Shown: positions 33,332 through 38,830, numbered from the stretch's first letter. The stretch: DNA of 64,000 nt from Anaerolineae bacterium (GCA_034433515.1 DAOUAL010000102.1:64556-128555), one strand, 5' to 3'. Program-made: numbers and translations. Notes: generated by a model from the sequence alone, not told the origin.

Positions 33332-33811
33332 TCATCTCTTGCCGTGCTTTGCAGTTTTCCATTCTCTCAGCAACCTTGGCAAGTCGGTTGGAAATGATAC
33401 TAGCCCGATTTGTTCGGCGGCTTGCCACAAAGACACATCAAACGTTGCTAATGTGACAGACTCGCCCATTGTTTCTTGCCACAGCGATGCGGCTGCCAAA
33501 TGAATGGCGTCATAGCCGCGCAGATGGTGTTTCCACGCCAGAAGGTCTGCGCGAGATACAACGGTCTCGGTGATTGGTGTGCGGACAAGATCGTTCCAAG
33601 CGCGCCGGAACATTTGTAAACTAGACAGTCCCTCCGTGCGTCGCAATGCTCCCATTCGTACCGCTTTGCCAAGCGCAGCGGCTACTTCAGCACGGCTAAT
33701 CAAGGATGTGCCGACAAGATTGGCGCTTGTGACAGCGGCTTTTGTCTCGATCGAGCCGTATTCGGTCACATAGAGTTTGACTAATGCGCTTGCGTCAAGA
33801 TAGAGGATCAT
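33332..33811 (-). CDS. vapC: PIN-domain toxin (VapC family)
   Basis: MILYLDASALVKLY (first acidic residue), then GYDAIHLAAA and ATFD. Its start overlaps the antitoxin stop (ATGA). Confidence 0.8.
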   Translation of the reverse strand: MILYLDASALVKLYVTEYGSIETKAAVTSANLVGTSLISRAEVAAALGKAVRMGALRRTEGLSSLQMFRRAWNDLVRTPITETVVSRADLLAWKHHLRGYDAIHLAAASLWQETMGESVTLATFDVSLWQAAEQIGLVSFPTDLPRLLREWKTAKHGKR

Positions 33812-34083
33812 TCGCGATTCTCCAGCAATATCTCAGCCACAGACTTTTTGCCGTGTGTGCGTGGCGTATGTTTTGGAGCACGAAATTTTTTTCCGCTCCA
33901 CGCCATCAACCCTGAGCGCACAAGCGCGCGTGTGCGTGCCTCCAGTGGCGTCCCGATGGGTACGAGCTGAACGATCGGTTTTCCTCGTTCTGTGATAATG
34001 AGCGTGCCGCCCGACTTGACCTGCCGCACATAAGTACCTAAACGCGTTTTCAATTCGCGAATCCCCACGGTCTCTTGCACCAT
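33808..34083 (-). CDS. vapB: Phd/YefM-type antitoxin
   Basis: ATG 34083 after GGGAGG. Contains VGIRELKTRLGTYVRQVKSGGTLIITERGKPIVQLVPIG. Confidence 0.8.
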   Translation of the reverse strand: MVQETVGIRELKTRLGTYVRQVKSGGTLIITERGKPIVQLVPIGTPLEARTRALVRSGLMAWSGKKFRAPKHTPRTHGKKSVAEILLENRE

Positions 34084-34274
34084 TTTTGCCTCCCTACCAA
34101 TGTGGCTACATTCTACCAAAAGTGGCTACAATTTGCAATAATGCTTATACGGGTGAGTATTCACCTGTGTTACGACAAACCAAGTGAAACAATCCCAAAA
34201 AACTATGAAGATTACTTCGTTGCAAAAAACGCTCCTCCCCATGACGCGAGCGAGATGTGAATAATCACCAGTGC

Positions 34275-35261: not shown

Positions 35262-35376
35262 ACAATCCTCCTGGTTTCTATGTTTTTGAGTTCTCGGTAG
35301 TAAAATCGCTCAAGTTCGGTCAATGAAAAACGATTCCCGAACCATCGAGAATCGCTTTTCTGTTGGCACGCCCAAA

Positions 35377-36282
35377 CTATTTTTGGCTGATCACCACAAA
35401 ACGATCCGCTGCCAAGGTCATCCTTACTTTGCCGTCGCTGACGCGCACCAGATTGTCCAGATGCGTAAAGTGTTTGGTATCGAGAAGGAGAACCTGTTCC
35501 CGTTTCTTTTCGAGCCATTTCAGAAATTTGGCCAAGTTGCCATCGGTCTCTGCCAGATAATCGGTGAGGCGGCGAAAAAGTTTGGGAAAGATGACACCGT
35601 TCGCTTCCAAATCGGCTTGGGTCTTGACTTGGACGCCGGTCAGCGTTCGATCCTCCGCCCACACGCCCCGTTTGGCTTTGCGCGCTCGGCGTGCGGCAGC
35701 GGCAAGTGGATTACGGAGTTCGGCAAACAGGGTATCGTAGAACAGCGGGTATGCATTGCCGCTCACGATGAGTTTATAGTTGACACTTTGTTTGAGTAAT
35801 GCCGGGGTCAAATAAATTTCCGTGCCATCAGCCGCCGGTGGCTCGCCGGTAAACACAAACGAGACGGGGCGTCCGTTCACTTCGAGTGAGCGCGAAAGGA
35901 TGAACCCAGGCGTTGCATCGTGCGGCACGGGTGGTTTGACTTTAAGGTTTTCGGGTGGAGTGTACGGGACCGGATTCAGACCCAATGCACCGGTCAGGAA
36001 ATCGCGCGCGGCATCGGCAAGTCTGCGGGGTTGATGAGAGACGGCGCCGCCTTTATCGGGTTTGTAGTGCTCTTCTAGCGCATCAATCCCTTCCATTCGC
36101 AACTGCACCGAGCTGATGTTGGAGAATTGCACCGGTTTGGTCAAGACGGTGAGGCGGTTGAGCAAGGAGGGTTTGTTCGGCTTGAAATGAATCGAGTCGC
36201 CGTCCGGCTCAAAGCCGATGGGTTTGCCGGTTTTGGTCTTGTTGACCAAGCGAAACGTTCCTTGGATAACGAGGAAGGGCAC
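35377..36282 (-). CDS. Staphylococcal-nuclease (SNase/thermonuclease)-like protein with ~95-aa C-terminal extension
   Basis: 301 aa, colinear with SNase. PDGDSIHF matches IDGDTVKL. VQLRMEGIDALEE matches FRLLLVDTPE, with Arg-x4-Asp-x2-Glu spacing as in Arg35/Asp40/Glu43. NGRPVSFVF matches YGRGLAYIY (Arg87). ARRARKAKRGVWAED matches AQAKKEKLNIWSE. It lies 9 bp downstream of the TIR gene. Confidence 0.65.
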   Translation of the reverse strand: MPFLVIQGTFRLVNKTKTGKPIGFEPDGDSIHFKPNKPSLLNRLTVLTKPVQFSNISSVQLRMEGIDALEEHYKPDKGGAVSHQPRRLADAARDFLTGALGLNPVPYTPPENLKVKPPVPHDATPGFILSRSLEVNGRPVSFVFTGEPPAADGTEIYLTPALLKQSVNYKLIVSGNAYPLFYDTLFAELRNPLAAAARRARKAKRGVWAEDRTLTGVQVKTQADLEANGVIFPKLFRRLTDYLAETDGNLAKFLKWLEKKREQVLLLDTKHFTHLDNLVRVSDGKVRMTLAADRFVVISQK

Positions 36283-36291
36283 GTGACTCCT

Positions 36292-37923
36292 TTACGCGCT
36301 CAGCGTTTTCACCAACTCGCTCAGCGCCGTTTGATACGCGGCTTCATTTTTCCAATTACTCATATCAATGACCACTCGATTTTTGCGTAGATCGGCTGCC
36401 CAGGGTTGGGGGGTCGTTGCCGCTGGCTTGTCCAACACAATGGGAAACAGAACGAGGACGTTTTGTTTGCGTTCGCGATCGAGCGCGGCTTCCACTTCGC
36501 TTTCGATCCAAGAACTTTCGATGGAATTCTCCGAGAGGAGGAGCAGCAACTTGTTGTAGGCGCGAATCGCATCGTCTGTACGAATGCGAAACCGCTCGCT
36601 GGTCTTCAAGTCTTCCGGCGCCAGCCAACAACGAATCCCCTGTCGCTCCAAATCGGTTTGCAAGCGTTTGGCAAATCCCTGATCCTTGTTCGAATAACTG
36701 ATGGCGCAAAATTCACAGGCTTGTTCTTGCGTGGCGGACGATTTGACAAAAGCGATAAATTTTTCTGGCACGCCACAGCCACGCAAGAAACTTTCTGGGA
36801 TGATGCCTTTGGAAAGGTAAATGGTATCCAAACCGATGTGAGAGGGTCCCAAGTGGGTTACGGCGTCTAACCCTTTGACGGAGCCAAAGTCAATCCCAAT
36901 GAAAACCGTTTCCCACAGGCGCGCTTGAGTCAGGTTCGCCTCGCCAAGATCCACCCCAATCAGTTTAGCCCGCGTGAGATTCGCGCTGTTCAGATTGGCG
37001 CCGCGCAAGTTCGCGCCGCTCAGATCGGCACCGCTCAAGTTGGCTTCATTGAGGATGGCGCCGGCAAGATTGGCGCCGCGCAAGTCGGCGCCGTTGAGGT
37101 CGGCGCCGGTTAGATCGGCTTCGCTCAAATCCACCCGGCTCAAGCAGGCCTTTTCTAAATTCGTGCGATTGAGATTGGCTTTTGGCATTCTTGCTAGACT
37201 GAGATCGGTTTGGCTCAAGTCGGCGCCAGCGAGTTCGGCTTCGGTGAGATCGGCGCCGCTCAGGTCCACGCCAGCGATGTTTGCCTTGCTCAAATTCGCG
37301 CGTGTCAGATTTACTCCGTCCAGATCGGCATCGCTCAAGTCCGCACCGCTCAACATGGCGCCGGTCAAATTGGCGCCGCTCAGGTCGGCTTCGCTCAACC
37401 AAACGTTATTCAATTCGGCTTCGACCAAACTGGCTTCGATGAGGTCTGCGCCGGCGAGATTGGTTTTGTTGAGATTCGTTCCATTCAGGTTGGCTTCGCT
37501 CAAGTTGGCTCGTGTGAGCATTGCGCCGCCCAAATCCGAGTGGCTGAGATCGGCGCGAAAGAGATTGGCGCGGGTTAGATCGGCGCGGAATAGATTGGCG
37601 CCCGTGAGCCGCGCGCCGATGAGTTTCGTTTCGATGAGTTTGGCTTCGATCAAGATGGCACCCTTGATCATAATCCCGCTCAAATCCGCGCCGCTCAAAT
37701 TCACGCCACTGAGATTGGCTTCGCTCAGGTCGGCTTCGATTAAATCCGCACCACTCAAATCACCCTTGAAGAGGTTGGCTTTGGAGAGATTGGCACGAAT
37801 CAGATTCAACCGACTGAGATCGGCGCGAAAGAGATCGGGTAGCGCGTCGGGATTGCGTGCGCGCCAATCATTCCAGAATCGGACGCCTTTCCGAAGCAAG
37901 GACAAGTGTTTTGCGTCTGCCAT
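36292..37923 (-). CDS. Pentapeptide-repeat protein (~62 consecutive units) with C-terminal TIR domain
   Basis: ATG 37923 after AGGGGAG (the track start 37983 is upstream). N-cap LLRKGVRFWNDWRARNP. About 310 aa of A(D/N)LxX repeats at ~36900-37836 with no register break. The C-terminal ~140 aa read FCAISYSNKDQGFAKRLQTDLERQGIRCWLAPEDL...LLLLLSENSIESSWIESEVEAAL. Confidence 0.8.
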   Translation of the reverse strand: MADAKHLSLLRKGVRFWNDWRARNPDALPDLFRADLSRLNLIRANLSKANLFKGDLSGADLIEADLSEANLSGVNLSGADLSGIMIKGAILIEAKLIETKLIGARLTGANLFRADLTRANLFRADLSHSDLGGAMLTRANLSEANLNGTNLNKTNLAGADLIEASLVEAELNNVWLSEADLSGANLTGAMLSGADLSDADLDGVNLTRANLSKANIAGVDLSGADLTEAELAGADLSQTDLSLARMPKANLNRTNLEKACLSRVDLSEADLTGADLNGADLRGANLAGAILNEANLSGADLSGANLRGANLNSANLTRAKLIGVDLGEANLTQARLWETVFIGIDFGSVKGLDAVTHLGPSHIGLDTIYLSKGIIPESFLRGCGVPEKFIAFVKSSATQEQACEFCAISYSNKDQGFAKRLQTDLERQGIRCWLAPEDLKTSERFRIRTDDAIRAYNKLLLLLSENSIESSWIESEVEAALDRERKQNVLVLFPIVLDKPAATTPQPWAADLRKNRVVIDMSNWKNEAAYQTALSELVKTLSA

Positions 37924-37943
37924 CGGCTCCCCTTTCTGCACCC

Positions 37944-37971
37944 AGTATATCGTCATTCGTATAAAAGTCAA
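37944..37971 (-). promoter_or_regulatory. Promoter of the TIR/nuclease operon (TTGACT-N16-TATACT)
   Basis: Minus strand reads ttgact tttatacgaatgacga tatact, ~20 nt upstream of the RBS. The -35 box overlaps the tail of the FTR1 terminator hairpin. Confidence 0.45.
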
Positions 37972-37993
37972 CGGCTCGCCCAAGCGAGCCGTT
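37970..37993 (-). terminator. Hairpin after the FTR1 permease gene
   Basis: AACGGCTCGC-(4 nt)-GCGAGCCGTT, followed on the minus strand by GACTTTTAT. Confidence 0.5.
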
Positions 37994-37996
37994 GAT

Positions 37997-38830
37997 TCAC
38001 TGCACGGGTGGGTTGGATTGTTGCAGACTCAAACGCTGCGTCCACCAGCGAATCGTTTGCACGACGATCAATAAATAGCCGAGGTAGGTTGCCACTTCGA
38101 GCATCGAAGGTTTGGCGTTGTAACCAACGAGCGCGCGCAAGATCGAACCGAGCACCGAATCGTTCGTGAGCAACCATTCGGTGTTCCACGCGCGATCCAT
38201 CAAAATGGGGAGCCAACCGATTTCTTGAAATTCGTGAACGGCGTGCGTGATCAAGCCCGCTGCAAAGACAATAAGCAAAATGCTTGTAACATCGAAAAAT
38301 AATTTTACGTTGAGACGGACGGCGTACACGTACATCAACACACCGAGGATGATGGCAAGGGCGATACCCATCAATGCGCCCATCAGTGTGCCTTGGGTAT
38401 CAGCGGCAAACGCATTCGCGGCGAGGAATAAGGCGGTCTCGAGTCCTTCACGGAACACGGCAAAGAAGGCGAGTCCAAACAAGCCCCACTTTTCTCCACG
38501 CGTGATGGCGGTCTGCACGTTTCGCTCGAGGGTGCTTTTGAGAAAGCGACTTTGATAACGCATCCAGAAAATCATCCACGTCAACACCGCCACCGCGAGC
38601 AACATGGTGGTTCCTTCAAAGATTTGCTCAAACGGTTCTTCCAATTCCGCGCCAAGGGCACGCATGCCCACCGCGATGAGCGTGCTGAGCCCTGTGGCTA
38701 TAATCACGCCTGCCCACACGATTGGGACGCGGTCGCGTCGTCCAATCTGTTGCAGATAACTCAGCACAATGCCGATCATGAGGGCAGCTTCCAGTCCTTC
38801 GCGGACGGTGATGAGCAGAGCCGATAGCAT
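37997..38830 (-). CDS. FTR1/EfeU-family high-affinity iron permease
   Basis: Two REGLE motifs (ITVREGLEAAL and VFREGLETALF) and seven predicted TM segments. ATG 38830 is chosen over track start 38893. Confidence 0.8.
   Translation of the reverse strand: MLSALLITVREGLEAALMIGIVLSYLQQIGRRDRVPIVWAGVIIATGLSTLIAVGMRALGAELEEPFEQIFEGTTMLLAVAVLTWMIFWMRYQSRFLKSTLERNVQTAITRGEKWGLFGLAFFAVFREGLETALFLAANAFAADTQGTLMGALMGIALAIILGVLMYVYAVRLNVKLFFDVTSILLIVFAAGLITHAVHEFQEIGWLPILMDRAWNTEWLLTNDSVLGSILRALVGYNAKPSMLEVATYLGYLLIVVQTIRWWTQRLSLQQSNPPVQ

Follow-up and report, generated by a model that had tools for sequence, protein, structure and literature searches.

The stretch considered here comprises 64,000 nucleotides of an Anaerolineae bacterium (GCA_034433515.1 DAOUAL010000102.1:64556-128555) and is called the window below. 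At positions 35377-37993 it contains two adjacent genes. Gene 1 encodes a protein of pentapeptide repeats and a TIR domain (PPR-TIR), and gene 2 encodes a protein with the fold of staphylococcal nuclease (SNase). An initial annotation of this DNA had interpreted the pair as a two-gene defence (abortive-infection) module. Comparison with other genomes points elsewhere. Because the adjacency is limited to the closest relatives, the pair is best described, with good though incomplete confidence, as two stand-alone genes of independent function, joined in one transcript only in the immediate lineage of the organism. Both open reading frames (ORFs) were confirmed on the minus strand:

36292-37923, minus strand: gene 1, PPR-TIR protein of 543 aa plus stop, a member of the long-form clade of a large cap/pentapeptide/linker/TIR family
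35377-36282, minus strand: gene 2, SNase-fold "thermonuclease family" protein of 301 aa that starts with GTG and lacks a signal peptide

Adjacency of the two genes and origin of the locus

A scan of one genome per species yielded 31 loci with homologues of gene 2 from at least seven phyla, the taxa being Chloroflexota, Acidobacteriota, Actinomycetota, Planctomycetia, Betaproteobacteria, Gemmatimonadota and Nitrospirota. All ORFs of these loci were compared with gene 1 in its separate parts (cap/repeat, linker, TIR). A PPR-TIR gene was found upstream of the SNase-like gene in a single genome locus, L001 (91% identity), and in none of the other 30. The Logan contig L032 (92% identity), which is additional to the 31 loci, has the same arrangement. 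In more distant relatives the upstream gene is a sugar transferase (L130/L131, 74% identity, with the epimerase downstream), CbiX (L002, 72%, and L133, 71%) or TldD/PmbA (L134-L136, 64%, with ribosomal protein genes downstream). The gene order of L002 is that of the window, that is, pyruvate kinase, Fe-dependent repressor, FTR1, SNase-like gene and epimerase, with CbiX in the slot occupied by the PPR-TIR gene in the window.

In the reverse direction, a hidden Markov model (HMM) of the SNase-like family was compared with 80 metagenomic PPR-TIR loci, 48 of which extend for at least 1 kb 3' of the TIR region. No SNase-like gene was found in any of the 80, even at E <= 10. It is also absent from L033 and L034, which carry long-form orthologues of gene 1 with 63 repeat units; in L033 the PPR-TIR gene is followed by a P-loop ATPase-like gene. 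Thus the pair is restricted to the window and the near-identical L001 and L032, and the proposal of a two-gene module fails for conserved adjacency, with one locus of 31 (plus L032) in the forward direction and none of 80 in the reverse.

The transcription signals of the locus are the following:

37968-37995, minus strand: intrinsic-terminator-like hairpin closing the upstream FTR1 gene, with a 12-bp stem (8 G-C pairs) and a loop of 4, followed by CTTTTAT
37944-37971, minus strand: sigma-70-type promoter-like element TTGACT-N16-TATACT, matching 10 of 12 consensus positions and overlapping the 3' arm of the FTR1-terminating hairpin
36287-36291, minus strand: AGGAG Shine-Dalgarno box of gene 2, within the 9-bp intergenic gap
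35325-35360, minus strand: likely terminator 3' of gene 2, consisting of a hairpin (16-bp stem) plus an A-run and a U-run (GAAAAGCGAUUCUCGA-UGGU-UCGGGAAUCGUUUUUC), dG -28.7 kcal/mol, z = -4.0

The anatomy initially described is indeed present. The two genes are 9 bp apart, the junction reading TAA-aggagtcac-GTG, and the promoter assigned to them after the FTR1-ending hairpin exists as a promoter-like site together with that hairpin. The hairpin with a T-run placed after the pair is real as well, as judged by its folding energy. A simple terminator scan missed this hairpin (35360-35325), although the folding energy supports it. The single promoter and single terminator support the assignment of genes 1 and 2 to one predicted transcription unit, and, since in addition the gap is only 9 bp and contains no terminator, co-expression of the two genes is very likely.

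Such an anatomy fits a true two-gene abortive-infection module. In it the PPR-TIR protein would sense infection and either make a nucleotide signal or directly activate its partner, the SNase-like protein would be the effector, and the C-terminal extension of the latter would be the ligand sensor. The catalytic glutamate of the TIR domain, the intact nuclease constellation accompanied by an unassigned C-terminal domain, and the retention of the pair in L001 and L032 also agree with this scheme. However, the adjacency is missing not only in 30 of the 31 genome loci and all 80 PPR-TIR loci, but already in relatives at 64-74% identity. Hundreds of homologues without a neighbouring TIR gene conserve the extension too, and the extension is unlike the known sensors of TIR signals (SLOG, Macro, SAVED), the sole hint being a non-significant winged-helix match. 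PADLOC gave no system-level match. Altogether, we regard a two-gene module as highly improbable. As no sensor domain is present, the locus is not a CBASS-like signal-plus-effector pair.

The origin of the juxtaposition can be considered by comparison with related Anaerolineae, in which the slot upstream of the SNase-like gene, with FTR1 (or an ABC transporter) on its other side, varies in content. The occupants of this slot are:

L002, 3964-4503: CbiX-type chelatase
L133, 3092-3586: CbiX-type chelatase
L130: sugar transferase
window, 36292-37923, minus strand: PPR-TIR gene

In L002 and L133, a terminator hairpin, the promoter-like site TTGACTTTT...TATACT (TTGACT-N16-TATACT) and the sequence GAAGGAGG are located directly before the ATG of the SNase-like gene. 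The same GAAGGAGG precedes this gene in L130; it is the counterpart of AGGAG in the window. In the window it is the PPR-TIR gene that follows a similar hairpin and promoter, and the nuclease gene is left with AGGAG alone. Gene 2 would thus be the resident gene, and the PPR-TIR gene was probably acquired between the pre-existing promoter and the Shine-Dalgarno box of the nuclease.

Several points weigh against independent genes brought together in this manner. Beyond the fixed hexamers, the likeness between the promoters of the window and of L002/L133 is marginal over shuffles (P ~0.04). No direct or inverted repeats flank gene 1, and no compositional signature of insertion was found there. The polarity of the event, that is, gain of PPR-TIR here as opposed to loss elsewhere, rests on parsimony. 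Finally, the tight packing of the two genes, with the 9-bp gap and the shared promoter and terminator, may reflect a functional link that has evolved recently.

The PPR-TIR protein and its family

The protein encoded by gene 1 consists of four parts:

37840-37923, minus strand: N-terminal cap, residues 1-28 (MADAKHLSLLRKGVRFWNDWRARNPDAL), with the WNxWR motif conserved family-wide
36880-37839, minus strand: array of 64 pentapeptide repeats, residues 29-348, in a single uninterrupted register
36709-36879, minus strand: conserved linker, residues 349-405 (GLDAVTHLGPSHIGLDTIYLSKGIIPESFLRGCGVPEKFI...), family-specific, with short helices in the predicted model
36295-36708, minus strand: TIR domain, residues 406-543, with W472 and the catalytic-position E476 (codon 36496-36498)

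The layout of cap, repeats, linker and TIR domain is as initially proposed, but the protein has 543 residues rather than 544 and the array 64 units rather than about 62. The start is best placed at ATG 37923. This codon is preceded by the Shine-Dalgarno box AAAGGGGAG, and the resulting N-terminus MADAKHL resembles the family consensus MANPEHL. A TTG start giving a protein of 563 aa is mechanically possible. The single A(D/N)LxX register claimed for the repeats was confirmed by register analysis, which yields 64 consecutive five-residue units with the consensus A-(D/N)-L-(S/T)-(G/E/R), and by the match to Pfam Pentapeptide (7.8e-98). On the DNA level the repeats are old, with 60-70% identity. 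A plus-strand ORF of 366 aa (window 36974-38074), whose translation is rich in Ala, Leu, Arg and Ser, lies antisense to the array; it arises mechanically from the repeat codons and is not a gene.

The assignment of the C-terminal domain to TIR also holds. It matches Pfam TIR_2 (9.9e-23, residues 408-531), its AlphaFold2 (AF2) model has alternating beta and alpha elements, and Foldseek matches it to AbTir (TM 0.74) as well as to SARM1 and SPARTA. The glutamate noticed four positions after a tryptophan is present: the segment SSWIESEVE contains W472 and E476, and both are invariant in the 20 aligned members of the family. The best matches of the model among solved structures are catalytic TIRs, namely SPARTA TIR-APAZ, SARM1 and AbTir. 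Since the glutamate of the WxxxE motif is kept and the nearest solved folds are those of NAD-cleaving TIRs, the most likely activity of the protein is hydrolysis or cyclisation of NAD+, which would occur upon oligomerisation.

A C-terminal TIR domain with the WxxxE glutamate is shared by SARM1, bacterial TIR-STAND/TIR-NLR proteins, AbTir and SPARTA TIR-APAZ. The domain order of SARM1 is ARM-SAM-TIR. In the NADases that combine repeats with TIR, the N-terminal solenoid could regulate or sense, as we propose for gene 1. In contrast to these proteins, the solenoid of gene 1 is a pentapeptide beta-helix and not an array of ARM, TPR, LRR or WD40 repeats, and there is no SAM, NTPase or APAZ domain and no Argonaute partner. 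By analogy, we infer that gene 1 may encode a single-gene NAD-consuming conflict protein with a regulatory or sensing solenoid. The rigid pentapeptide solenoid of variable length would then be the regulatory/sensing and assembly module of a one-gene protein of the abortive-infection type.

Thoeris, composed of the TIR protein ThsB and of ThsA, is another system with which gene 1 can be compared. They share a TIR_2-type domain, and gene 1 has weak matches to ThsB models. However, its score with the Pfam ThsB_TIR model is 19.1 bits at a cut-off of 21.2, and no ThsA (SIR2, transmembrane or Macro with SLOG) is adjacent, the neighbours being the SNase-like gene and FTR1. The locus is not a Thoeris system. 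PADLOC gave only generic TIR-domain matches to gene 1, the best one being SAVED_TIR (1.7e-9, TIR part alone), and its best match to gene 2 was non-significant (0.0024).

The PPR-TIR family, defined with the linker and TIR part of gene 1, comprises more than 1,300 clusters. Its architecture is Pentapeptide plus TIR_2, the proteins being mostly 200-380 aa long, with a shared N-terminal cap, a shared linker and the invariant W/E pair. Most members have 3-31 repeat units, and the long clade that includes the window has 63-64. Members of this clade (window 36880-37839; L033 4020-5669; L034 3713-5362) are only 58-64% identical in the linker-plus-TIR region. The fixed number of units in spite of this divergence suggests selection on the length of the helix.

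A survey of neighbours revealed no conserved partner gene of the PPR-TIR family. Tandem arrays of PPR-TIR paralogues were found in several loci, with three copies in L040, two in L073, five in L090 and four in L092. The arrays are located at 1175-4651 in L040, 3515-5663 in L073, 18-4533 in L090 and 4656-10623 in L092, and the repeat numbers differ within them. Arrays of this kind, with differing repeat numbers, are typically seen in conflict genes that diversify. Among the 144 neighbours, the most frequent family is Phage_integrase, with 5, and single PPR-TIR loci adjoin MmeI and SIR2, DRT, HicAB or HigA genes. The homologue P0138 (L117 and L118, 1-4969) is located about 1 kb 3' of an MmeI-type restriction-modification gene and a gene for a protein of 854 aa that weakly matches SIR2_2 and TPR; for this family, the locus offers one of the clearer contexts of a defence island. 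Four relatives are on IMG/VR contigs.

The PPR-TIR gene on its own is a plausible candidate for a single-gene TIR conflict or defence system, as judged by comparison with better-known TIR proteins. Two considerations count against a defence role: the neighbourhoods of the family are enriched only modestly in mobile and defence genes, and the role is assigned by analogy. A more specific scheme would make PPR-TIR an undescribed single-gene anti-phage or conflict system, in which a DNA-mimicking helix baits or guards a DNA-binding target (a phage protein, or the host gyrase under attack), and the engaged target triggers TIR oligomerisation and NAD+ depletion; in the lineage of the window, the co-transcribed cytoplasmic SNase-like nuclease could add a second effector arm. 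In this full form we consider it rather unlikely. In the literature searched, neither an anti-phage protein of the PPR-TIR type nor a PPR-TIR/SNase-like pair is described; the initial annotation likewise knew of no described system with this composition. The search returned only general remarks on pentapeptide repeats as modules that form superstructures in conflict systems.

Pentapeptide repeats have a well-known role of a different kind. MfpA, Qnr, AlbG and McbG are DNA-mimicking pentapeptide beta-helices of ~180-220 aa that protect topoisomerases. Gene 1 resembles them in its canonical A(D/N)LXX repeats, whose register is uninterrupted, but its array of 64 units is much longer and is combined with a conserved N-terminal cap, a linker and a TIR domain. 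One may ask whether the PPR-TIR protein consumes NAD at all. Its helix could dock on a DNA-binding enzyme, either DNA gyrase or another, with the TIR domain serving only for oligomerisation, as a scaffold or as a regulator. The strong pentapeptide matches, with partial matches to the Qnr and MfpA models, agree with such docking, and so do the fixed 63-64 units of the long clade, suggestive of a structural ruler, and the ordinary neighbourhoods of many PPR-TIR loci. However, the scores of gene 1 with the NCBIfam equivalogs are far below the cut-offs (Qnr, 95 bits vs 240; MfpA, 94 vs 360). The invariance of W472 and E476 speaks for retention of the catalytic site, the closest folds belong to catalytic TIRs, and tandem arrays of paralogues that vary in repeat number are characteristic of conflict genes. 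Docking in place of NAD consumption seems distinctly unlikely, and the NAD-consuming conflict protein remains the preferred reading of gene 1.

The SNase-like protein and its family

Two regions can be distinguished in the protein encoded by gene 2:

35647-36282, minus strand: SNase-like OB-fold domain, residues ~1-212, delimited by the family alignment and by AF2/Foldseek
35380-35646, minus strand: C-terminal extension, residues ~213-301, with three helices and a small beta-sheet, invariant PKLxRRL, family-specific

The resemblance to SNase proposed initially is supported by the fold and by the catalytic-site motifs, but not by the Pfam SNase model (PF00565), whose match is below the gathering score (17.5 bits at a cut-off of 21) and covers residues 163-209 only. 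In the gene-2 family, 11 of 20 members match PF00565, at best with 2.5e-7. The AF2 model of gene 2, built on 20 homologues, has pLDDT 90 and pTM 0.89, and Foldseek aligns it with many SNase structures (E ~1e-5, target-normalised TM 0.72-0.79).

The family alignment contains the invariant motifs PDGDS (26-30), R62-x4-D67-x2-E70, GRP (137-139), YPLFY (178-182) and W208; thus D27/D29, R62, D67, E70 and R138 are all invariant. The active-site residues of the S. aureus nuclease are Asp21, Arg35, Asp40, Glu43 and Arg87. Residues D29, R62, D67, E70 and R138 of gene 2 have the same order and spacing, as judged from the motifs and not by superposition of residues. Alignment of the family profile with S. 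aureus nuclease A by hhalign covered only the C-terminal helix, and a profile search of the PDB sequences with the gene-2 family gave no SNase match. Since the profile alignments failed over the active site, the equivalence of the catalytic residues rests on the fold and the motif spacing. The Asp/Arg/Asp/Glu/Arg constellation suggests that gene 2 encodes an active nuclease or phosphodiesterase dependent on divalent cations.

Compared with staphylococcal nuclease (PF00565, COG1525 YncB-like), gene 2 has the same OB-fold topology, motif spacing and C-terminal helix with Trp. It differs in having insertions inside the fold and a private extension of ~90 aa, in the sub-threshold Pfam score, and in lacking a signal peptide; the conserved N-terminus of the family, MPFxLIQGTF, contains none.

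The extension had been described as an unrecognisable region of ~95 aa. It is real and has no significant Pfam match, and its size as delimited here is ~90 aa. The best Pfam hit is the winged-helix family HTH_34 (E = 0.038), and no nucleotide-sensor domain (SAVED, SLOG, CARF, Macro), as would be expected in a signal-activated nuclease effector such as CBASS Cap4 or NucC or a Thoeris-like one, was found in it by Pfam. An exhaustive search of 1.8 billion representatives found the extension solely at the C-terminus of the gene-2 family, with the exception of one spurious match: P0241, at the top of the list with 27 matched stretches, is a Glu/Leu-rich coiled-coil repeat protein. A similarity to PDB 8y6v_E ("gp85" of a phiKZ-type capsid entry) had E = 0.002, which rose to 0.04 with the family profile, and was taken as chance.

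The gene-2 family is large, comprising over 1,500 clusters when grouped at 90% identity; its members are ~300 aa long and are conserved over the full length. Many clusters are labelled "endonuclease YncB (thermonuclease family)" by JGI, and plasmid-borne relatives are labelled "thermonuclease family protein" by PGAP. A distant member of 275 aa (L119 4986-5813, 32% identity), which includes the C-terminal extension, is encoded on a predicted viral contig. It adjoins an 874-aa ORF that is primase/helicase-like by eye and an ORF that is RuvC-like by eye.

The neighbours of SNase-like genes are mostly metabolic or housekeeping genes, and their clustering revealed no gene common across lineages and no conserved partner. 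In related Anaerolineae the same NAD-dependent epimerase is usually located 3' of the SNase-like gene (window, L001, L032, L002, L130/L131). In other hosts, a "sugar dehydrogenase small subunit" and a GMC oxidoreductase adjoin SNase-like homologues (L126 2561-5868, L127 6886-9035, L021 2376-5700). These hosts are a Methylobacterium plasmid, a Streptomyces plasmid and a Terriglobia metagenome-assembled genome (L021), with a ferritin-like gene in the first and the last. The GMC-oxidoreductase/small-subunit/ferritin-like cluster was rejected as a conserved partner of the nuclease, as it occurs in just three lineages and is absent from the other plasmid and genome loci.

It is conceivable that gene 2 is tied to the downstream epimerase and other cell-envelope sugar genes, or elsewhere to the GMC-oxidoreductase cluster, and is not a DNA or RNA nuclease directed against invaders or the host genome. 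The position of the epimerase directly 3' of the gene fits the former variant, as do the glycosyl and sugar transferases upstream in L130; the grouping of all three genes (small subunit, GMC oxidoreductase, ferritin-like) in the Methylobacterium plasmid and L021, and the small subunit with GMC oxidoreductase in the Streptomyces plasmid, fit the latter. However, in the window a strong hairpin lies between gene 2 and the epimerase, each of the associations is seen in few lineages while most loci have no common neighbour, and the SNase catalytic motifs are invariant. Such a non-nuclease role is very unlikely.

Flanking genes and meaning of the locus

The flanks of the locus contain FTR1, the NAD-dependent epimerase and a toxin-antitoxin pair:

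33332-34119, minus strand: PhdYeFM-type antitoxin (103 aa) and PIN toxin (159 aa), with a 4-bp overlap of their genes

The latter corresponds to the vapBC pair initially reported at 33.3-34.1 kb. It is also kept in L032, 3' of the same epimerase. The suggestion that the locus belongs to a small defence islet is weak, because the neighbourhood is housekeeping except for this one vapBC-type pair and no GC anomaly was found across the locus in the window. No Rfam element was found at the locus.

Both genes are new members of families that are catalogued yet uncharacterised, and their pairing is not a conserved feature. Neither family is surprising in kind, as TIR fusions to repeat domains and thermonuclease homologues have already been catalogued. 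The locus calls for caution in discovery based on guilt by adjacency: it has the looks of a textbook operon, yet it is a lineage-specific juxtaposition. Its lasting value is in the two families. The PPR-TIR family is large and coherent, has an intact NADase-type site and no prior characterisation that we could find, and is a target for screens of single-gene defence. The SNase-fold family is widespread, has no signal peptide and carries a private C-terminal domain.

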